Sequence record: PZ754631.1
DNA: 51,438 nt
DNA from: a phage
Strand: one strand, 5' to 3'
Of this stretch, positions 6,325 through 42,637 are shown one piece after another. Under the pieces are notes generated by a model that was given only the letters and a program-made list of their open reading frames with translations, was not told the DNA's origin and searched no databases. A program made the translations under genes and the position numbers. Numbering within the stretch: position 1 is the stretch's first letter; each line of letters begins with the position of its first letter.

Positions 6325-6407
6325 CACAAAATTATGTTGCACGTTTAACAAAAAATGCTATCATTGGGGCGTTACATACTAACGGCCTTTATATATGGAG
6401 GAAGAAA

Positions 6408-7382
6408 ATGGAAAAAGAAAAATTTGATCAGCTAGATGCGGATATTGTTTCTAGCTATCTAGCTACTCGCGGCGTTAAGGGTGATGCTTCTGATATGGGT
6501 ATCTGGACGGCGCAAGAGCTTCACAAGATCCGCTCAACTGCTTACGAGAAAGAGTATCCGGCAGGTTCGGCACTTCGTGTGTTCCCTGTAACTAATGAGC
6601 TTTCTGATACTGATAAAACTTTTGAATACCAGATGTTTGATAAAGTTGGTTACGCAAAAATTATTGCTGATTACACCGACGATCTGCCGACCGTTGACGC
6701 GCTGATGTCTAGCGAATTTGGTAAAGTGTTCCGCTTGGGTAACGCGTTCTTGATCTCCATTGACGAAATCAAGGCTGGTCAGCGTACTGGTAAGAGCCTT
6801 TCCACTCGCAAGGCAAACGCAGCGCAAAACGCTCATGATCAGGAAGTTAACCGCCTGGTGTTTAAGGGTTCAAAGCCGCATAAGATTCTTTCGGTGTTTG
6901 AACACCCTAACCTGACAAAGATCGTGTCAACTGGCTGGTTAAGTGCTGATGAAAACACTAAGTTCCCGCAGGCAGCATCTGATGAACTGGAAAAGGCTAT
7001 TGAAACCATTCAGACCATCACCAATGGTCAGCACCGAGCAACCAACATCCTGATTCCGCCGTCTATGCGCAAGGTTCTTTCCGTTCGAATGGAAAACACC
7101 ACTGAAAGTTATCTGGAATACTTCCAGAAACAAAACAGCGGAATCACCATTGACTCAATCGCAGAGCTTGAGGATATTGATGGCGCAGGAACGAAAGGTT
7201 GCCTGGTATATGAGAAAGACCCGATGAACATGTCGATCGAAATTCCAGAAGCATTTAACATGCTTCCTGCGCAACCAAAAGATCTGCATTTCAAAGTTCC
7301 GTGTACTTCAAAATGTACTGGCCTGACGATTTACCGTCCGTTTACGCTAGTGCTTATTACTGGCTTGAAAAAATCAGGTTAA
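6408..7382 (+). CDS. major capsid protein
   Basis: 324 aa; strong RBS GGAGG; flanked by intrinsic terminators (hallmark of highly expressed capsid gene); position in head module. Confidence 0.8.
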   Translation: MEKEKFDQLDADIVSSYLATRGVKGDASDMGIWTAQELHKIRSTAYEKEYPAGSALRVFPVTNELSDTDKTFEYQMFDKVGYAKIIADYTDDLPTVDALMSSEFGKVFRLGNAFLISIDEIKAGQRTGKSLSTRKANAAQNAHDQEVNRLVFKGSKPHKILSVFEHPNLTKIVSTGWLSADENTKFPQAASDELEKAIETIQTITNGQHRATNILIPPSMRKVLSVRMENTTESYLEYFQKQNSGITIDSIAELEDIDGAGTKGCLVYEKDPMNMSIEIPEAFNMLPAQPKDLHFKVPCTSKCTGLTIYRPFTLVLITGLKKSG

Positions 7383-9372: not shown

Positions 9373-10035
9373 ATGCATTTACCAAATGGATCGCAAATTT
9401 TCGTTGAGAGCAATCGAGACAGCGAAATCCAAGCAACAGCAGTGTCAAACGCCAAAGATCCTGTTTTCACTGTTGCATCTGGCGGCGCTGCGTACAAGAA
9501 AGGTGATTATGTGATCATCACTGCGTCTTCTTGGGGTAAGCTGATTGATCGTGTTATGCGTGTAAAGGCTAACGGTGAAGAAACAAGCGTAACGCTTGAG
9601 GGCGTTGATACGTCTGATACTAACGCGTTCCCTACTGGCGGCACAGCGTCTTTTGCAAAAATCAGCGCATGGACTGAGATCCCTTGCATTCAGGATTTGT
9701 CGCAGGAAGGAGGCGAACAGCAATACTATACTTATCAGTGTTTGGCAGACGACCAGGAACAGCAGTTACCTACCTATACGAGCGCCGTTTCTCTGACCTA
9801 CACTTTTGCGCACGAATACGATAACGCGATCTATCCGTTACTTCGTACAGCAGATGAATCAAACGCTGTAACAGCGCTTCGCATGTATATACCAAAAGCA
9901 AAAGAGATGCGTTGCTGGGCTGGTGTCCTTTCGTTTAACGAAATCCCGCAGACCACAGTTAACGAAATGGAAACTGTTTCCCTGTCTGTATCCCTGAAAG
10001 GTCGATTCACCTTTCTACCTTCTCAAGTAGCATAA
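9373..10035 (+). CDS. major tail (tube) protein
   Basis: 220 aa; position before chaperone/frameshift pair; followed by strong intrinsic terminator. Confidence 0.75.
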   Translation: MHLPNGSQIFVESNRDSEIQATAVSNAKDPVFTVASGGAAYKKGDYVIITASSWGKLIDRVMRVKANGEETSVTLEGVDTSDTNAFPTGGTASFAKISAWTEIPCIQDLSQEGGEQQYYTYQCLADDQEQQLPTYTSAVSLTYTFAHEYDNAIYPLLRTADESNAVTALRMYIPKAKEMRCWAGVLSFNEIPQTTVNEMETVSLSVSLKGRFTFLPSQVA

Positions 10036-10064: not shown

Positions 10065-10134
10065 TTACTGTACAATCATGATACACGATTCATAATCAAT
10101 TCTTTTAACAAAAAGTGCTATCAAGGAGAAAGAA

Positions 10135-16039: not shown

Positions 16040-19000
16040 ATGGCTGAAAATATGATAACGGGCAGTAAGGGTGGATCATCAAAACCTTATGTGCCGAAAG
16101 AGATGGAAGATAACCTGATCTCAATCAACAAAATCAAAATCCTTCTTGCCGTTTCCGATGGTGAGTGCGATCCATATTTCACGCTTCGCGATCTGTATCT
16201 CGATGATGTTCCGGTAATTGCAGATGATGGAACTGTTAACTATCAGGGTGTGAAAGCTGAATTTCGACCTGGAACGCAGACGCAAGATTACATCCAGGGG
16301 TTTACTGACACATCAAGCGAAGTGACGCTGGCGCGTGACATTACTACATCAAATCCTTATGTAATTTCTGTAACCAACAAAACATTGTCGGCTATCAGAA
16401 TAAAAATGCTAATGCCAACAGGCATTAAGCAAGAGGATAACGGCGATCTTGTAGGTGTTAAGGTCACTTATGCTGTTGATATGGCTGTTGACGGAGACTC
16501 TTACAAAGAAGTATTGCGAGACACCATCGAAGGTAAAACACGTTCAGGTTACGACAGAAGCCGAAGGATTGACCTTCCGGCATTTAATGATCGTGTATTA
16601 CTTAGGGTTAGAAGGGTTACGGCAGACAGCGCATCTTCTCGCGTTACTGATCTGATTAAGCTACAAAGTTACGCTGAGGTTATTGATGCAAAATTCCGTT
16701 ATCCTCTGACTGGTCTTGTATACGTTGAATTTGACAGTGAGTTGTTCCCTAACCAGATCCCTAACATTTCAATCAAGAAGAAATGGAAGTTGATTAATGT
16801 TCCGAGCAATTACGATCCGGTAATGCGAGAGTATCACGGTTCATGGAATGGTACGTTCAAGAAAGCGTGGTCGAACAATCCGGCGTGGGTACTTTATGAC
16901 ATTATCACAAACCAGCGATACGGATTAGATCAGCGAGAACTTGGTGTGCAGGTTGACAAATGGAGTCTTTACGAAGCGGCGCAATACTGCGATCAGAAAG
17001 TACCGGACGGAAAAGGCGGCACAGAGCCGCGTTATCTATGTGATGTTGTTATTCAGAGTCAGATTGAGGCTTATCAGCTTATTCGTGACATTTGCTCTAT
17101 CTTCCGTGGAATGAGCTTTTGGAATGGCGAGAGCTTGTCAATCGTTATTGATAAGCCGCGCGATCCGTCGTACATCTTCACCAATGACAACGTTGTTGAT
17201 GGTGATTTTCAGTACACAACAGCAAGCGAAAAGAGCATGTACACGCAGTGCAACGTGACGTTTGACGACGAACAAAACATGTATCAACAGGACGTAGAGG
17301 GCGTATTCGACACAGAGGCCGCATTGCGCTTTGGATACAATCCGACAAGCATAACAGCGATCGGATGTACACGCAGGAGTGAGGCTAATCGGCGCGGTCG
17401 ATGGATACTAAAAACCAACTTGCGCAGCACTACGGTAAACTTTGCTACTGGACTGGAAGGCATGATCCCATCAATAGGTGATGTGATTGCTATTGCTGAC
17501 AACTTTCACAGCAGCAACCTGAAGTTAAACCTATCAGGGCGCGTGATGGAAGTTTCCGGCTTACAGGTATTCGTTCCGTTTAAGATTGATGCTAGACCAG
17601 GTGATTTCATTATCATCAACAAGCCGGACGGAAAGCCAGTTAAGCGCACAATCTCAAAAGTAAGCGGTGACGGAAAAACCATTGAGCTAAACATCGGGTT
17701 TGGATTTGAAGTTAAACCGGACACGGTTTTTGCAATCGACCGCGCCGATATTGCTTTGCAGCAATACGTTGTAACGAGTATCGGCAAAGGTGATGATGAT
17801 GATGAATTTACATACTCCATCACGGCTGTTGAATATGACCCGAACAAATACGACGAGATTGATTATGGAGTAAACATTGACGACAGGCCAACCTCAATTG
17901 TCCAGCCTGACACAATGGCAGCGCCTGAAAATGTGCAAATATCCTCATACTCGCGAATTGTCCAGGGTGCAAGCGTTGAAACAATGGTTGTGTCGTGGGA
18001 TAAAGTACCTTACGCATCGCTGTATGAAATGCAATGGCGAAAAGGTGATGGCAACTGGCTGAATACACCACAGACTGCAAACAAAGAAATTGAGGTTGAA
18101 GGTATTTATTCAGGAAACTACCAGGTAAGGGTTAGATCTGTTTCCGCTTCAGGTTCTACGTCTCCGTGGTCCAGAATTGTGACAGCATCACTGACTGGTA
18201 AGGTGGGAGAGCCAGGCGCGCCAGTTAACTTAACCGCATCCGACAATGAAGTGTTTGGCATTCGTGTTAAGTGGGGGATGCCAGAAGGGAGCGGAGATAC
18301 GGCATACATTGAGCTTCATCAGTCGCCGGATGGAACGGCTGAAAACTCAAGCCTGCTAACGCTGATCCCGTATCCACAATATGAATACTGGCACGGTACG
18401 CTTCCGGCTGGTCATGTTGTCTGGTATAGAATCCGCAGCGTTGACAGAATCGGCAACGTTTCCGGCTGGACTGATTTTGTTAGAGGCATGGCTTCAGATG
18501 ATGTGGAGGCTGTTTTAGGTGATATTCTTGATAAGATTTTTGATACAGAAGCAGGCAAGGATCTGAAAGAGAACGCCATTGACAGTGCAAACAAGATAAA
18601 GGACCAGGCGCAAGCAATCATCCAGAATGCCCTTGCTAATGATGCTGATATTAAGTGGACGCGAGTACAAAACGGAAAGAGAAAGGCTGAATATGGTCAC
18701 GCTCTTGAGCTTATAGCCACAGAGACTGAGGCGCGAGTGACGCAGATTGAAGAGTTGAGGGCGTCAATCGACGAGGATATTGTTTCAAGCATAAAGACAG
18801 TGCAGGAGGCTATCGCCACAGAATCTGAAACGCGAGCAACTCAAATAAATGCTTTGGATTCAAAATTTACAACTGAAATTGACGGCGTAAAACGCAATAC
18901 AGCAGCAAGCATTAATCAGGTGAATCAAACCATTGCTAATGAGTCAGAAGCGCGCGCGCAGGCCGTTAACGCTCTTGATGCGAAGTTCACAAAGGAGATC

Positions 19001-19618
19001 GAAGATTTAAATGGAGTTATTAAGACTGAGGTTGAGGCTAACATCTCTGAAGTGAAACAGGCTATCGCTAACGAGACAGAGGCAAGGGTGCAGGCTGACC
19101 AGGCGTTAACAGCTAAGTTTGGAGACGTTGAATCTGCATTGTCGCAAAAACTTGATTCATGGGCTGGTGTGTCTTCTGTTGGTGCTAAATACTCAATGAA
19201 ACTTGGGTTAACTTACAACGGGCAGAAGTACAGCGCAGGAATGGTAATGCAGCTTTCGCAGAGTTCATCCGGCCTTATCTCGCAAATCTTGTTTGACGCG
19301 AACAGGTTCGCGATCATGACAAGTTCGACTGGCGGAACGTTTACTTTGCCTTTTGTTGTTGAAAACAACCAAGTTTTCATTAATAGCCTGTTAGTTAAAA
19401 ACGGTTCAATCACAAATGCTATGATCGGTAATTATATTCAGTCGAATAACTTTGTTGCCAATCAGCAGGGTTGGAGGCTGGATAAAAGCGGAAGATTTGA
19501 GAACTACGGTTCTACATCTGGAGAAGGGGCCATGAAGTTGACAAATGAAACGATAAGTGTACGAGACGCAAACGGGCGCTTGCGTGTTCAGATTGGTAGG
19601 CTTACTGGTACGTGGTAA
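16040..19618 (+). CDS. tail tip host-specificity protein (lambda J-like)
   Basis: 1192 aa; size and position; FN3-like central segments; preceded by terminator and -10 box. Confidence 0.8.
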   Translation: MAENMITGSKGGSSKPYVPKEMEDNLISINKIKILLAVSDGECDPYFTLRDLYLDDVPVIADDGTVNYQGVKAEFRPGTQTQDYIQGFTDTSSEVTLARDITTSNPYVISVTNKTLSAIRIKMLMPTGIKQEDNGDLVGVKVTYAVDMAVDGDSYKEVLRDTIEGKTRSGYDRSRRIDLPAFNDRVLLRVRRVTADSASSRVTDLIKLQSYAEVIDAKFRYPLTGLVYVEFDSELFPNQIPNISIKKKWKLINVPSNYDPVMREYHGSWNGTFKKAWSNNPAWVLYDIITNQRYGLDQRELGVQVDKWSLYEAAQYCDQKVPDGKGGTEPRYLCDVVIQSQIEAYQLIRDICSIFRGMSFWNGESLSIVIDKPRDPSYIFTNDNVVDGDFQYTTASEKSMYTQCNVTFDDEQNMYQQDVEGVFDTEAALRFGYNPTSITAIGCTRRSEANRRGRWILKTNLRSTTVNFATGLEGMIPSIGDVIAIADNFHSSNLKLNLSGRVMEVSGLQVFVPFKIDARPGDFIIINKPDGKPVKRTISKVSGDGKTIELNIGFGFEVKPDTVFAIDRADIALQQYVVTSIGKGDDDDEFTYSITAVEYDPNKYDEIDYGVNIDDRPTSIVQPDTMAAPENVQISSYSRIVQGASVETMVVSWDKVPYASLYEMQWRKGDGNWLNTPQTANKEIEVEGIYSGNYQVRVRSVSASGSTSPWSRIVTASLTGKVGEPGAPVNLTASDNEVFGIRVKWGMPEGSGDTAYIELHQSPDGTAENSSLLTLIPYPQYEYWHGTLPAGHVVWYRIRSVDRIGNVSGWTDFVRGMASDDVEAVLGDILDKIFDTEAGKDLKENAIDSANKIKDQAQAIIQNALANDADIKWTRVQNGKRKAEYGHALELIATETEARVTQIEELRASIDEDIVSSIKTVQEAIATESETRATQINALDSKFTTEIDGVKRNTAASINQVNQTIANESEARAQAVNALDAKFTKEIEDLNGVIKTEVEANISEVKQAIANETEARVQADQALTAKFGDVESALSQKLDSWAGVSSVGAKYSMKLGLTYNGQKYSAGMVMQLSQSSSGLISQILFDANRFAIMTSSTGGTFTLPFVVENNQVFINSLLVKNGSITNAMIGNYIQSNNFVANQQGWRLDKSGRFENYGSTSGEGAMKLTNETISVRDANGRLRVQIGRLTGTW

Positions 19619-19661
19619 AATCAAAGCGGGGCATTTGCCCCGCATTTATGGAGGTTTAATA

Positions 19662-19967
19662 ATGGCTGAATATGGTGTTTCAACGTGGGATGCTAACGGG
19701 AAGTATAACAACTACGGAATCAAGCCAGTTTCCGTTGTTGGTGTCATTAGCCTTGCGGCTGGTCAGACAAGCGGATCGTGGAGCTTTAGCATTCCAAGTG
19801 GTTTTAAGGTTGGGTATGTTGTTTCGCTTGATGAGGGTGCTAGAGGGGTTGGAAGGGAAATAGTAGCATCTGGAAACACAATAAGAATCAGTCCTACATC
19901 TTCAGTTGGTGCAAATAGATATTCTTCTTCAAAGTGTGAGTTAGTTGTTTTTCTTGAGAGGGCTTAA
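19662..19967 (+). CDS. hypothetical protein, MAEYG paralog 1 (tail-tip-associated?)
   Basis: RBS GGAGG; starts MAEYGVSTWDANGKY; shares YG..WDA(N/S)GK module with next gene. Confidence 0.55.
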   Translation: MAEYGVSTWDANGKYNNYGIKPVSVVGVISLAAGQTSGSWSFSIPSGFKVGYVVSLDEGARGVGREIVASGNTIRISPTSSVGANRYSSSKCELVVFLERA

Positions 19968-19968
19968 A

Positions 19969-20610
19969 ATGGCTGAATATGGAGCAATGTTATCTTTATC
20001 AAATGGGAATCCATTTATCACACCAAAATCAACGCCATTTTGCTTATATGGCAAGTACACTTATTCATCTTCTGGCACTTCTGCCTATCATAGCGCAAGC
20101 GCAAATATACCATTGAATCAATCTTATCCATGTATGGCATTTATAAAAACAACAAACACACAGCAGCCAACTGCATTAATAGCTTACAGGAATGGTGGCA
20201 ACATTTATGTAAACGGAGGCAATCCATACGGGCAATCATTTACAATGACTGTTTATATATTTGCCATATTCCCTCAAACTCTACCCAAATATGGTATGGC
20301 TATATGGGATGCAAGCGGCAAGTTGGTTTTAACTAATGAAAGCAGGGTGCTAACAGATCTTGTTACAATTGGTACTCCTGGTTCTTCAGGTGGAACGAAT
20401 ATAGATCAAACGTTATCTGGTTCTTATGCCGTTTGCCCTTCAAGGCTTGGTGCGGTTGTAGGCATGGGTGCTTCTGATATATACACATCATGCAGGTATA
20501 ATGGTTCAAGCACAAGGATAGGTGCAGCAAGGACAACGCCAGGAACAGGATCTATAACAAATAACGGAAATTCAATAATTGCAATAAAGACTGATATTTA
20601 CGACCAATGA
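19969..20610 (+). CDS. hypothetical protein, MAEYG paralog 2 (tail-tip-associated?)
   Basis: starts MAEYGAML; contains second copy of module (KYGMAIWDASGK); Ser/Gly/Thr-rich; followed by bidirectional terminator. Confidence 0.55.
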   Translation: MAEYGAMLSLSNGNPFITPKSTPFCLYGKYTYSSSGTSAYHSASANIPLNQSYPCMAFIKTTNTQQPTALIAYRNGGNIYVNGGNPYGQSFTMTVYIFAIFPQTLPKYGMAIWDASGKLVLTNESRVLTDLVTIGTPGSSGGTNIDQTLSGSYAVCPSRLGAVVGMGASDIYTSCRYNGSSTRIGAARTTPGTGSITNNGNSIIAIKTDIYDQ

Positions 20611-20640
20611 AAAAAGGGGCTTACGCCCCTTTATTTTTAT
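20611..20640. terminator. bidirectional intrinsic terminator between convergent genes
   Basis: A-run, AGGGGC-TTAC-GCCCCT, T-run. Confidence 0.7.
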
Positions 20641-20868
20641 TTACAGACTGCAATCAGCGTTTTTAAAGTTATCAATGCTTACCCACTGAAAATTAAACGG
20701 ATAGCCAGCCTTAACAAGAGTGTGTTCGCCAACTCGTTTTACTCCAAAAATAGCAACTGAATACTGCATTCCGCTATTTTCATAAATAGCCGAGCATTCA
20801 CGCTTAGGCATATTTGCACATCCAGTCAGTGCAACGGTGGCAATCAAAACGGCGATTAACTTTTTCAT
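20641..20868 (-). CDS. small outer-membrane lipoprotein, candidate superinfection-exclusion factor (Cor/Llp-like)
   Basis: 75 aa; signal peptide plus lipobox LTGC; own promoter module upstream; located just past receptor-binding genes on opposite strand. Confidence 0.55.
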   Translation of the reverse strand: MKKLIAVLIATVALTGCANMPKRECSAIYENSGMQYSVAIFGVKRVGEHTLVKAGYPFNFQWVSIDNFKNADCSL

Positions 20869-20899
20869 TTTTGTGTCTCCTTAGTTGTTGTTGGTTGCA

Positions 20900-20943
20900 A
20901 CTATACACGATCTTGCGGTGGGCGTTTAGCAAAAAGTGCTATT
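20900..20943 (-). promoter_or_regulatory. early promoter cassette (minus) driving Cor-like lipoprotein
   Basis: on minus strand AATAGCACTTTTTGCTAAA, 19-bp spacer, TATAGT. Confidence 0.5.
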
Positions 20944-21038
20944 CTTGTTCTTTTTGTTATCCGGTGTTCTCAAATCTGCGGAGTCTTAAATTTAGCTCAA
21001 AAAGTGAACAACAATAGAGCGCAATACATACAGATAAA

Positions 21039-21120
21039 TATATACATACATATAAATCAATAAGTTAGTAGTATATATGTTTATATTTGTTTTTCTTGTT
21101 ATCTATGTTTTGTGTGATTT
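21039..21120 (+). repeat. ~75 bp AT-rich element with IHF-consensus core, copy 1
   Basis: exact 16-mer AAATCAATAAGTTAGT (21054-21069) matching WATCAANNNNTTR, followed by TATATATGT..TTATATTTGTTT..CTTGTT shared with copy 2. Confidence 0.6.
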
Positions 21121-21311
21121 TGTGTGTCTGGTGATTTTTTATGTGGTTGTGTATGTGTCAGTGTCTGTGTGTGTCTATATATCTATATCCGGCGCAAATT
21201 GAGGAACAAGAGAACAAAAAGACAACAAAGATATTTATCAATCACTTACATGTAAGTTTTGTTATCAAAGCTGGACAGAACGTTGCTAGAACAGAAAAAA
21301 CAAAACAACTA

Positions 21312-21339
21312 TTGACTAAACGCATCAAATAGCTACAAT
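21312..21339 (+). promoter_or_regulatory. sigma70-type promoter for recombination module
   Basis: TTGACT, 16-bp spacer, TACAAT; ATG about 30 nt downstream. Confidence 0.55.
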
Positions 21340-21368
21340 GCAGGCATACCAACCAACGAGGGCAAATC

Positions 21369-22430
21369 ATGAATAAGTTTATGGCGTACACCAGCGAAGA
21401 AATGAGTAACGAGCTTTATCACGATCCAGAAGCGTGGACGGCTGATTATGTTAGCGGCTCAAGCCTGGCAGAGATTTACAGCACATGCCCGGCAGCGTGG
21501 AAGTTCAAGCCGCGTGACGACAAGAGCAAGGCGCTAGTTTTTGGTACGCAGTCGCATACCAACTTTGAAAGCAGTGAGCTTTTCGAAAAAACCTATCGCC
21601 GTGCGCCAGCGCCAGAAGACTTTAAGGATCTGATAACCAGCCAAACGGCGCTTGCTGCAAAGCTAAAATCATTTGGCCTGAAAGGTACAACAGGAAAGAC
21701 TTACCCTGAACTTATAAAAATGTTGGTTGACTGCGGAGAAGACCTTAACGTTATGTGGTTAATCGACATGATCGCAGAAAGCCAGGCCATGGCCGATGGG
21801 GTTCAGTTAATCGAAGCTAAAGATTACGATGCGTGCGTGGCAATGCGCCAGGTTCTGGAATCAATACCGGAACATAACGCATGTATGAATAGCAAGACGG
21901 CACAACGTGAATTATCGTTGTTCGGTGAAATCAACGGCGTAAAAGTCAAAGTGCGATGCGATCACGTTGACGTAACAAAGAACGTCACCGCAACGCTGAT
22001 TGATGGTTACGATGAAAAAGGTCAGCCAATTTGCCGCGATATTATTTATCCAGAGGCCATTGTGATCACAGACTACAAAACCACAATGAGCGCGAATCCG
22101 GCTGAGTTTATGCGCCTGGCTTACAATCACGGCTATTATTTGAAAATGGCGTTGCAATGTGATTTATTCAGAAAAGCGTATCCAGAAGAAAAGCGACCTA
22201 TAGTTGTGCGACTGTTAGCGCAAGAGAAGAAAGAGCCTTATTTGCCGTTGGCTTTCCGCATGAACAGCGAGCAATTGAAGATCGGGCGCATTCAGTACAT
22301 GAGCGTAATTAACCAGTTTGCCATGTGCCAGCAACATAACGTTTGGCCTTCGTATTCAAACGGCGAGCCGGAGGTTTGCCTTGATACTCCTGATTGGGTG
22401 CGACGCCAGTTTAAGCAATATCTTATTTAA
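21369..22430 (+). CDS. RecB/Cas4-family (PD-(D/E)XK) exonuclease
   Basis: 353 aa; motifs CDHVD and ITDYKTT typical of RecB-like nuclease core; upstream of Erf and SSB. Confidence 0.65.
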   Translation: MNKFMAYTSEEMSNELYHDPEAWTADYVSGSSLAEIYSTCPAAWKFKPRDDKSKALVFGTQSHTNFESSELFEKTYRRAPAPEDFKDLITSQTALAAKLKSFGLKGTTGKTYPELIKMLVDCGEDLNVMWLIDMIAESQAMADGVQLIEAKDYDACVAMRQVLESIPEHNACMNSKTAQRELSLFGEINGVKVKVRCDHVDVTKNVTATLIDGYDEKGQPICRDIIYPEAIVITDYKTTMSANPAEFMRLAYNHGYYLKMALQCDLFRKAYPEEKRPIVVRLLAQEKKEPYLPLAFRMNSEQLKIGRIQYMSVINQFAMCQQHNVWPSYSNGEPEVCLDTPDWVRRQFKQYLI

Positions 22431-29548: not shown

Positions 29549-29592
29549 AATAGCATTTTTTGTTAAACGATGATTTAATGATTGTGTATTAT
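29549..29592 (+). promoter_or_regulatory. early promoter cassette driving helicase operon
   Basis: AATAGCATTTTTTGTTAAAC, 18-bp spacer, TATTAT. Confidence 0.5.
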
Positions 29593-31671: not shown

Positions 31672-32077
31672 TAAAGGCGATTATCTGGAGTTTTACGAAA
31701 GAGATCCGACGGATACGCTAAAAGAGGAATCTCACCAGATCGGGGCGTTTCAATGGTTAACTTATGCTCATCCTGAATTTCTTGCCTGGCATACTAAAAA
31801 TGAGGGTGACAAGGGGATCGCCACGGCAATGATGGATCAGCAAGCCGGACTAGTTAAGGGCGTAAGTGATTTTATCATCCTGATTGGATTAAAAGGCCGT
31901 TACCCTTTCGCGGCTATTGAGATGAAACGCGTCAATAAGTCTGGCAAGGGTAAGGCTTCACCAGTCAGCAAGGAGCAAAAAGCCTTCTTGCGCCGTGTGC
32001 GTGAGCTTGGCGGATTCGCTGCCGTAACATACGGATATAAGCAATTCATGATCGCAGTAGAATACATGATGAAATAG
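31658..32077 (+). CDS. VRR-NUC domain nuclease
   Basis: PD-(D/E)XK-like GVSDFIIL...AAIEMK motif; stop TAG embedded in promoter module. Confidence 0.6.
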   Translation: MAMTDKGDYLEFYERDPTDTLKEESHQIGAFQWLTYAHPEFLAWHTKNEGDKGIATAMMDQQAGLVKGVSDFIILIGLKGRYPFAAIEMKRVNKSGKGKASPVSKEQKAFLRRVRELGGFAAVTYGYKQFMIAVEYMMK

Positions 32078-34962: not shown

Positions 34963-35178
34963 ATGAAAGATTTTTTAAACGCTGCAACTTCCGGCACTGG
35001 CGGCGCGTCAATCACTGGCGCTGTAACTGGTCAAACAACCATTGCAATAGCCAGCTTCGTTTTGATGGCTGCATTTGGTATGTGGGGCGCTTATCTTCGC
35101 TGGCGTGATAGTAAGGCGCTACGTGACGCGCTTGAATGCGGTGATATTAAGAAAGCTATTGAGATCAGAGGTAAATAA
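34963..35178 (+). CDS. holin (probable pinholin)
   Basis: 71 aa; hydrophobic TM segment(s) and charged C-terminus; directly upstream of SAR endolysin. Confidence 0.7.
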
Positions 35179-35666
35179 TGAGTATAAAACAAAGAGTGAC
35201 CGCTGCGGCTTTTGGCGTTGCTCTTGCCCTTACTTCTCCGCTACTGGAGGAAATAGAAGGAGTAAAACATAAGCCTTACAAAGATATTGCTGGGATATGG
35301 ACGGTTTGCGCCGGAATAACTGGACCTGACGTAATACCAGGCAAAACGTACACACAAAGAGAGTGCGATGCGCTACTGGCAAAGCATATCAAGATCGCAA
35401 AGGATGAAGTTGATAAACGTGTGAAGGTTGACATTCCTGATACAATGCGCGCGGCGATGTATTCATTCACATACAATGCTGGCACTGGTGCTTTTAGAAA
35501 TTCAACTATGCTTAAGCTGATTAATAACGGTCGTTATATGGAAGCGTGCAATCAGTTATGGCGATGGACAAAATACACCAATCCAAAAACAGGAAAGAAA
35601 GAAACGTCTAAAGGACTGCGTAACCGCCGCGCGGTGGAATTTAAATATTGCATTAAGGATCTGTAA
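35178..35666 (+). CDS. SAR endolysin (lysozyme, E-x8-D-x5-T catalytic triad)
   Basis: weakly hydrophobic Gly/Ala-rich N-terminal SAR-like segment; [16 protein letters not shown] triad spacing. Confidence 0.8.
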
Positions 35667-35668
35667 TC

Positions 35669-36055
35669 ATGAGAAAGTTATCAGCAATCGCGATCGCTGT
35701 TATTTTGTCTGGATGTTCAAGCGTTACGCCACTGACCGGATTGATAGGAAGCAAGCCTGAGATAACAGCACAGGCAGGAGCAGAGAACGTAAAGCAGACC
35801 GTTGGCGTTACCGCAAAGCAGGACACCAGTACAAAACAGGAAACTACAATAAAGGAATCTGCGGTTGATAAGGTGGACACGTCCAGCAAGAAGGATTTCA
35901 CTACATCAACCATTCAGGCTAACACCATCAAGGCTGATAAAATCCAGGTCGTGCAAGGTAATAACGGCAGATGGTACGACCCCATAATCATATGCGTGGT
36001 TGTGCTCATTGTGCTGATTTGGCTTTACTGGAGGGAAAAGAAAAAGGAGGCTTAA
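35669..36055 (+). CDS. unimolecular spanin (T1 gp11-like)
   Basis: N-terminal lipobox LSGC plus C-terminal TM helix (IIICVVVLIVLIWLYW); last gene of lysis cassette. Confidence 0.75.
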   Translation: MRKLSAIAIAVILSGCSSVTPLTGLIGSKPEITAQAGAENVKQTVGVTAKQDTSTKQETTIKESAVDKVDTSSKKDFTTSTIQANTIKADKIQVVQGNNGRWYDPIIICVVVLIVLIWLYWREKKKEA

Positions 36056-42024: not shown

Positions 42025-42249
42025 TCATTCGCGATCACCTGGATTGTGAGACTTTGAGTTTGGTCAATTTTAATCAAGTGATTAACTTTTTGTGTGGAGG
42101 GGATAGAGAAACGCGGTCCTCTTGCATCCTTTCCGGCATTCCTGGCGCGCAACATGTTCATTATGTTTCCAGCCGTTCACGCAAATAAGCCTCCGCAGTT
42201 CTTCTACGTTTCATGCCGTCATGCACACAAAAGAAACAAAGTAAAATCT

Positions 42250-42325
42250 ATATAAATACACATTAAATCAATAAGTTAGTTATATATGTATTTATATTTG
42301 TTTCTTATTGTTCTTGTTGTGTGAT
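42250..42325 (+). repeat. ~75 bp AT-rich element with IHF-consensus core, copy 2
   Basis: same 16-mer at 42265-42280 and ~80% identity over flanks to copy 1, same orientation. Confidence 0.6.
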
Positions 42326-42569
42326 GGTTATTGGTATATGTTGCGATTTTTGTTTTGGTGGATATTGATTGTTTATTGTTCGATTTGGTTGGTGATCATG
42401 ATTGCTCATGGTCGCGTATGATTCTTGATGTATTTATGTATATATCCGCGAAAATTCGTGAACAGCCACACAGCCAAAAAACATGACGAGGATTCTTTTA
42501 AAATCATGCGCTTAAGTGTGAATTTTGTTTCCGCGCAATCTCCACACGTATAGCAAACAATTAGAACGC

Positions 42570-42599
42570 TTGACATAGACACGACGCGGTGGCAACATT
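42570..42599 (+). promoter_or_regulatory. candidate rightward early promoter (consensus -35)
   Basis: perfect TTGACA followed 17-18 bp later by weak AACATT; ~40 nt upstream of gene 42638. Confidence 0.35.
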
Positions 42600-42637
42600 G
42601 CAATCACCAACAAACAAGGCAAATAGGAGTTACACTC

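Follow-up and report, generated by a model that had tools for sequence, protein, structure and literature searches.

The T5 lipoprotein Llp binds the periplasmic face of FhuA, upon which extracellular loops 7 and 8 of the receptor fold inwards allosterically (PMC9586334). Cor and Llp are regarded as one family, with a common fold and disulphide, and are probably alike in action (PMC9586334; PMC13164509; bioRxiv 10.64898/2026.03.26.714494), and the molecular mechanism of Cor itself has not yet been elucidated (bioRxiv 10.64898/2026.03.26.714494). The Cor alleles assayed for exclusion are, to our knowledge, those of temperate phages, namely phi80, N15, HK022, and mEp167 (including the assays in bioRxiv 10.64898/2026.03.26.714494). 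Among the BASEL phages, a three-gene cor cassette tracks FhuA use, the full cassette being found in the FhuA-dependent phages only (KanT1 study, PMC13164509), and in the work of Maffei et al. each receptor corresponded to particular allelic variants of the locus behind gpJ. The T1 cryo-EM paper leaves the distal tip unresolved and is hence silent on the two small genes that follow J. Within the genus Hanrivervirus, JLBYU41 was found by experiment to be FhuA dependent (PMC10373560). With regard to gene control, the authors of the TLS paper described a repeat, aaATAGCACnnnTTGnTAAAA, located about 76 nt before start codons and present also in T1, Rtp, and Rogue1; they left its function open between a stoperator, an enhancer site, and an UP-like element.

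We analyzed the corresponding locus in a phage sequence of 51,438 nucleotides (PZ754631.1), the whole of which we call the window. The window phage is a virulent, T1-like Hanrivervirus (Drexlerviridae, Tempevirinae). The 2 kb around the gene considered here are 97.8% identical to Escherichia phage vB_EcoD_Fulano1 and 94 to 96% identical to G29-2, herni, Henu8, JLBYU41, and others, all of them members of Hanrivervirus. We are highly confident that this gene (minus strand, 20641..20868) is cor, the gene for superinfection exclusion in this virulent T1-like phage, probably shutting down FhuA by an Llp-like mechanism. The gene as such is already known: the annotations of sister genomes have it as Cor, a curated family model includes it, and both its arrangement and the upstream repeat are found in the literature. 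In the Hanrivervirus relatives, cor is 88 to 95% identical and annotated as "Cor superinfection exclusion protein" or "super-infection exclusion protein."

The reading frame opens with ATG, closes with TAA at 20643..20641, and encodes 75 aa, translated as MKKLIAVLIATVALTGC, the N-terminus of the product, followed by ANMPKRECSAIYENSGMQYSVAIFGVKRVGEHTLVKAGYPFNFQWVSIDNFKNADCSL. At the N-terminus, the basic n-region MKK and a hydrophobic core of 11 residues precede the lipobox L-T-G-C; the signal peptide comprises residues 1 to 16, the codon of Cys17 lies at 20820..20818, and the mature protein of 59 aa contains Cys25 and Cys73. An initial annotation of this DNA had proposed a 75-aa minus-strand lipoprotein with LTGC, and its coordinates, length, and lipobox are all correct. 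The lipobox suggests lipidation on Cys17, and the Pfam model LPAM_1 scores 19.8 bits against the protein, marginally below its cut-off of 20. Under the established Lol sorting rule, residue +2 is used to predict the location of a lipoprotein, and the Ala at this position in Cor predicts the outer membrane. A Shine–Dalgarno sequence, AAGGAG, lies on the minus strand at 20877..20882 (read 20882..20877), 8 nt 5' of the ATG, and is invariant in five related phages. At the other end, the gene is followed by an intrinsic terminator (20607..20632, minus strand) with an 8-bp G+C-rich stem and a 4-nt loop, the hairpin at 20632..20613 starting 8 nt past the stop codon and running into the U6 tract UUUUUU. 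The hairpin is bidirectional and on the plus strand also ends the convergent tail-gene transcript; in G29-2 and T1, a terminator is annotated at the equivalent place.

Across six Hanrivervirus alleles of cor, pairwise dN/dS ranges from 0.04 to 0.26, as is expected of a real gene under purifying selection. Diversifying selection was considered and ruled out, as dN/dS stays below 0.3. The replacements among these alleles cluster within the signal peptide and at a few positions, three or four, of surface type. No other protein of the module changes as fast as Cor, which has 95% identity to JLBYU41 versus 99% for both upstream proteins, and the window allele is alone among the seven Hanrivervirus alleles compared in having T11, S26, and H48.

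The initial annotation had called the product Cor/Llp-like, and its assignment can be narrowed: by family profiles and similarity to described proteins, the gene is a true Cor orthologue and not merely Cor/Llp-like. The NCBIfam equivalog NF047972, "phage exclusion lipoprotein Cor," scores 68.6 bits (cut-off 31) and aligns profile positions 1 to 76 of 78 to residues 1 to 73. The match to phrog_1119, "Cor superinfection exclusion protein," covers the full length with an E of 9.1e-28, and identity over 97 to 100% of the length amounts to 53% with T1 Cor, 37% with phi80 Cor, and 32% with N15 gp24. A Pfam search returned no family, just the lipid-attachment site below its cut-off; since Pfam is without a Cor family, a reading from Pfam alone goes no further than lipid attachment, and the family assignment came from PHROGs and NCBIfam. 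The number of homologues likewise depended on the search, with 7 close relatives from a first word-index search and 217 database homologues from a profile built on the T1, phi80, N15, and T5-like sequences. Among 121 aligned family members, Cys17 and Cys25 never vary, and Gly16, Cys73, and each residue of AGYPF (A54, G55, Y56, P57, and F58) are conserved in at least 90% of the sequences.

In the AlphaFold2 model of Cor (mean pLDDT 86.7, from the 121-sequence alignment), the signal peptide forms a helix, after which comes a small beta-rich domain. Of 350,542 PDB chains, the one that matches this model best is T5 Llp with FhuA (8A60_B), with a TM score of 0.51 normalized to the query and 0.61 to the target and an rmsd of 2.9 Å over 59 columns at 19% identity; the probability of this match is 1.00, with a Foldseek E of only 0.082, and small Tudor-like barrels rank close behind. 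The best matches among predicted viral structures are a Cor protein and lipoproteins of T5-like phages.

The tail-tip side of the locus is made up of three plus-strand genes. J encodes the central tail fibre or tip attachment protein of 1192 aa (16040..19618; Pfam FNIII-A_GpJ, Phage-tail_3, and Phage_Tail_Tip; phrog_31). The 101-aa gene at 19662..19967 is of the T1 ST32/N15 gp22 type (phrog_557, E 1e-29), is 60% identical to T1 ST32, and goes by the legacy name "outer membrane protein"; the 213-aa gene at 19969..20610 is of the T1 ST31/N15 gp23 type (phrog_425, E 5.6e-69), is 56% identical to T1 ST31, and goes by the legacy name "membrane associated protein." Neither small gene found a match in Pfam or NCBIfam searches. 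The order in the window, J, the two small genes, the terminator, cor in reverse, and exonuclease VIII, is that of T1. Placement on the opposite strand after the tail-tip genes, as proposed in the initial annotation, is thus borne out, with cor following J and the two small genes in convergent orientation; its wording "receptor-binding genes" holds for the position behind the tail-tip gene J and has to be softened for the two small genes, which are putative receptor-binding loci and may instead act in exclusion. Both small proteins start with MAEYG, and the pattern YG(V/M)(S/A)(T/I)WDA(N/S)GK is common to the two, at the N-terminus of the 101-aa product and near residue 108 of the 213-aa product. 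Database matches to window positions 19500-21500 and 16040-19618 included 18 unannotated GenBank MG0656xx "Campylobacter phage" records (host Campylobacter jejuni) that are 94 to 96% identical to the coliphage region, and the Cor of "Pseudomonas phage Motto" is 68% identical to that of the window; the host labels of these records look doubtful.

The J-to-cor module is near-identical to that of the FhuA-dependent JLBYU41, with 95% identity for Cor, 99% for both small proteins, and 96% nucleotide identity over the full length of the J gene, and FhuA is therefore the expected receptor of the window phage and, specifically, the expected target of its Cor. The two Cor proteins differ at 4 of 75 residues, one in the signal peptide and the other three, S/T, E/D, and H/R, being conservative or near-conservative. 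Among the receptors named for testing in the initial annotation, FhuA is accordingly the one to be expected from the identity of the module, and BtuB and LptD are not. The link between Cor-type proteins and FhuA does not hold for all lineages, since some Tempevirinae with a Cor-like gene use BtuB (PMC13164509), and one may ask whether the protein blocks another outer-membrane transporter, for example BtuB, after a receptor switch in the lineage. Such a switch would be in keeping with the occurrence of Cor-like genes in BtuB-using Tempevirinae and Markadamsvirinae (KanT1 study, PMC13164509), with the dependence of Warwickviruses near JLBYU41 not on FhuA alone (PMC10373560), and with the four differences from JLBYU41 Cor. 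However, the BtuB-type Tempevirinae are without the ST32-like gene (PMC13164509) and the window has both small genes, these and J are as close to the genes of the FhuA-dependent JLBYU41 as given above, and the four differences amount to a signal-peptide residue and three mild exchanges. We consider a different receptor quite improbable. Still further from the evidence is a function unrelated to the receptor, as an outer-membrane spanin subunit or a generic lipoprotein moron (e.g., of the Bor type): a small lipoprotein with Ala at +2 resembles o-spanins and Bor, and Pfam offers no family beyond lipid attachment, but the score against the Cor equivalog is more than twice the cut-off, the mature protein is not proline-rich, and the gene sits in the conserved J-to-cor module. 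The spanin reading is excluded by a complete lysis cassette 14 kb away (34963..36055), with holin, endolysin, and a 128-aa Rz-like spanin, and the generic-moron reading was rejected on the equivalog score and the J-to-cor context, leaving this whole class of explanations with hardly any probability.

Upstream of cor, a 21-nt direct-repeat box, AATAGCACTTTTTGCTAAACG, is found on the minus strand at 20923..20943; read as 20943..20923, it agrees with the end coordinate, 20944, of the initial annotation. The box is the cor copy of a genome-wide cassette: AATAGCACTTTTTGTTAAAAC is present in the window in 16 copies with at most 3 mismatches, compared with 0 expected from 100 shuffles. Other cassette copies are at 29549, 32073, 33114, 38238, 38914, 40326, 40832, 41970, 43358, 43821, 44358, 45362, 46694, and 49341. 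The box occupies the equivalent place upstream of cor in six Hanrivervirus genomes, and the exact 21-mer recurs in viral contigs, with at least 120 stretches containing it; almost all of these contigs are 25 to 53 kb long, which is a T1-like size. A full-text search of the literature with the repeat string matched unrelated papers only. At cor, a -10-like hexamer, TATAGT, lies on the minus strand at 20900..20905, 17 nt 3' of the repeat, and almost all copies of the cassette have, 17 to 18 nt past the box, a hexamer whose second position is A and whose sixth is T (CATAAT, TATAAT, TATAGT, or TACATT; the weak copy at 6362 is ambiguous). The hexamer is followed by a related short leader and a Shine–Dalgarno sequence, the conserved leader CATCGAAACGA...GAGGA preceding the start codons at the cassette copies. 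The distance from the start of the box to the ATG is 75 nt for cor, 72 to 78 nt in 11 of 14 copies (75 to 78 nt in most cases), and 72 to 86 nt in all but one, where it is 99 nt.

The cassette copies also vary. A minority have GAA for TTT in the middle of the box, like the subgroups in TLS, and G+C-rich inverted repeats, differing in sequence, are found in several spacers (e.g., those at 32073, 33114, 38914, and 43358). A spacer hairpin as a general feature of the cassette was nevertheless dropped, because only some copies have one and that of the cor copy is weak. Two boxes lie within the plus-strand late operon in the opposite direction. The box at 6342-6362 (minus) falls in the gap that precedes the major head gene (6408..7382), and the box at 10102-10122 (minus) in the gap that follows the major tail gene (9373..10035). 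The latter box has TATCAT 18 nt further on and would read antisense into the major tail gene, and a nearby hairpin is without a U tract on the minus strand. The cassette serves the genes of two helicases and of a DNA methyltransferase, along with many small ORFs in the 38- to 50-kb region, and no structural or lysis gene on the sense strand is served by a copy. Given these genes, early or middle timing is a reasonable inference.

The initial annotation had described this element as an early promoter cassette. The 21-nt repeat, its 16 copies, and the -10-like hexamer are real, whereas its role as a promoter and its early timing are better worded as probable. The distribution of changes at cor argues for function: the box, the hexamer with its leader, and the Shine–Dalgarno sequence are all invariant in five relatives, including AAGATCGTGTATAGTTGCAACCAACAACAAC at the -10-like hexamer, and the spacer that separates TATAGT from the box on its 5' side is variable, a pattern that fits functional elements. 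The protein may nonetheless be Cor with the repeat serving as a regulator-binding or "stoperator"-type site and cor being transcribed otherwise or not early, in line with the options listed by the TLS authors. Such a role would agree with the spacing of the motif TTG(T/C)TA, which is 21 to 22 nt from the hexamer across copies (TTGCTA at 21 nt from TATAGT in the cor copy and TTGTTA at 22 nt in others) and thus outside normal sigma-70 geometry. A sigma-70 consensus scan of the minus strand upstream of cor called no promoter, the cassette being detected by repeat analysis only, and the two boxes antisense inside the late operon also fit such a role. Weighed against this are the regularity of the hexamer 17 to 18 nt after almost every box, the near-constant distance to the start codons with its single outlier, and the conservation of box and hexamer around a variable spacer. 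The sequence between the repeat and the cor ATG offers no alternative promoter candidate, and at the corresponding place T1 cor carries a canonical TTGCAA-17-TACAAT. We regard a purely regulatory site as unlikely, though deserving of more weight than the alternatives for the protein, and it leaves the identity of the protein as Cor unchanged. Returning to the cassette as a putative promoter, the box is too far from the hexamer for a normal sigma-70 promoter, so it could, as a tentative possibility, mark a promoter class needing a phage-encoded or host factor, with cor in the replication and host-takeover regulon. If this is true, the copies at 6362 and 10122 would additionally drive antisense transcription into the late operon.

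The long divergent intergenic regions at 20945-21368 and 42162-42637 have a common core of about 45 nt, TAAATCAATAAGTTAGT..ATATAT..TTTATATTTGTTT, with 90% identity over 40 nt. Within this core, the IHF consensus WATCAANNNNTTR is matched perfectly. Both regions are rich in TG and TA repeats, and the former carries a sigma-70-like TTGACT-16-TACAAT at 21312-21339, 5' of the exonuclease VIII gene. An Rfam scan of the whole window found no RNA family.

The following sequence of events would account for the action of the gene. A monocistronic cor transcript would start just 3' of TATAGT, probably early in infection, and end at the bidirectional terminator. The pre-protein would leave the cytoplasm through Sec and receive its lipid on Cys17, signal peptidase II would remove the signal peptide, and the mature lipoprotein would be sorted to the outer membrane, with a disulphide forming between Cys25 and Cys73. 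By analogy with Llp, its 59-residue beta-rich domain would then bind the periplasmic face of the TonB-dependent transporter FhuA and inactivate it allosterically, the extracellular loops folding inwards as seen for the T5 protein. FhuA-dependent phages, among them the window phage itself, T1, T5, and phi80, would be blocked in adsorption or injection, and Cor may also spare progeny from loss on the debris of lysed cells.

The window phage thus carries a standard FhuA-type host-recognition and exclusion module, and the import of the analysis lies mainly in the correct annotation of it. The module predicts that the phage needs FhuA and that infected or cor-expressing cells resist T1, T5, and phi80. 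Such phages would exclude one another, which makes the finding useful for the design of phage cocktails, and it is also of use for receptor prediction from sequence alone. The cassette, in turn, bears on how a 21-nt repeat found throughout the family may drive or control transcription in T1-like phages.

Among the described systems, T1 is the closest. Its Cor (ST30, YP_003915) likewise has 75 aa, with the same lipobox position, Cys25 and Cys73, and AGYPF, and the 53% identity extends over the full length. In T1, cor is also on the opposite strand after J, ST32, and ST31 and before exonuclease VIII, with a bidirectional terminator in common with the tail genes and a long intergenic region between cor and exonuclease VIII. 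The two differ in the control region, where T1 has its canonical TTGCAA-17-TACAAT, whereas the window has the Tempevirinae-type 21-nt box and TATAGT at a noncanonical distance. The Cor proteins of the temperate, FhuA-dependent phages phi80, N15, HK022, and mEp167 belong to the same NCBIfam equivalog at 32 to 37% identity and, unlike the window protein, have a 3-residue insertion before Cys25. In phi80 and N15, cor likewise follows J and homologues of gp22 and gp23. In the temperate phages, however, cor is on the strand of the tail genes and expressed from the prophage, whereas it is inverted in the window and T1, and the window gene, unlike its temperate counterparts, carries a cassette in common with the helicase, methyltransferase, and small-ORF genes.

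T5 Llp (8A60 chain B) is a small outer-membrane lipoprotein encoded beside the receptor-binding function of a virulent, FhuA-dependent siphophage, as is predicted for the window Cor. The identity between the two is about 19 to 28%, and phmmer gave a nonsignificant E of 0.19 to 8A60_B in a sequence search of PDB; with tblastn, the window Cor matched a "receptor-blocking protein" of Epseptimavirus at 33% identity with an E of 8e-4. At these levels of similarity, the window Cor is a distant relative of Llp and not a member of the Llp subfamily. A solved structure places Llp on the periplasmic face of FhuA, whereas for Cor such binding comes from modelling only (PMC13164509). The surroundings differ, too: Llp adjoins the pb5 gene, and SE3, a T5-like phage, has its lipoprotein gene divergent from that of a 593-aa "receptor-blocking protein," likely of the pb5 type, whereas the window locus has no pb5 homologue and the neighbors are J and the two T1-type small genes. 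The initial annotation had likened the arrangement to those of Cor in T1 and phi80 and Llp in T5; this is exact for T1, holds for phi80 as to the genes but with cor on the same strand, and extends to Llp in the proximity to the receptor-binding function but not in the neighboring gene, which for Llp is pb5. The 21-nt repeats of TLS, finally, agree with those of the window in consensus, in their orientation with transcription, and in their distance of ~76 nt to the start codons. TLS uses TolC and according to Maffei et al. is without the small-gene locus after J, which the window has, and the copy of the box before cor is therefore a feature of the FhuA-type genomes.
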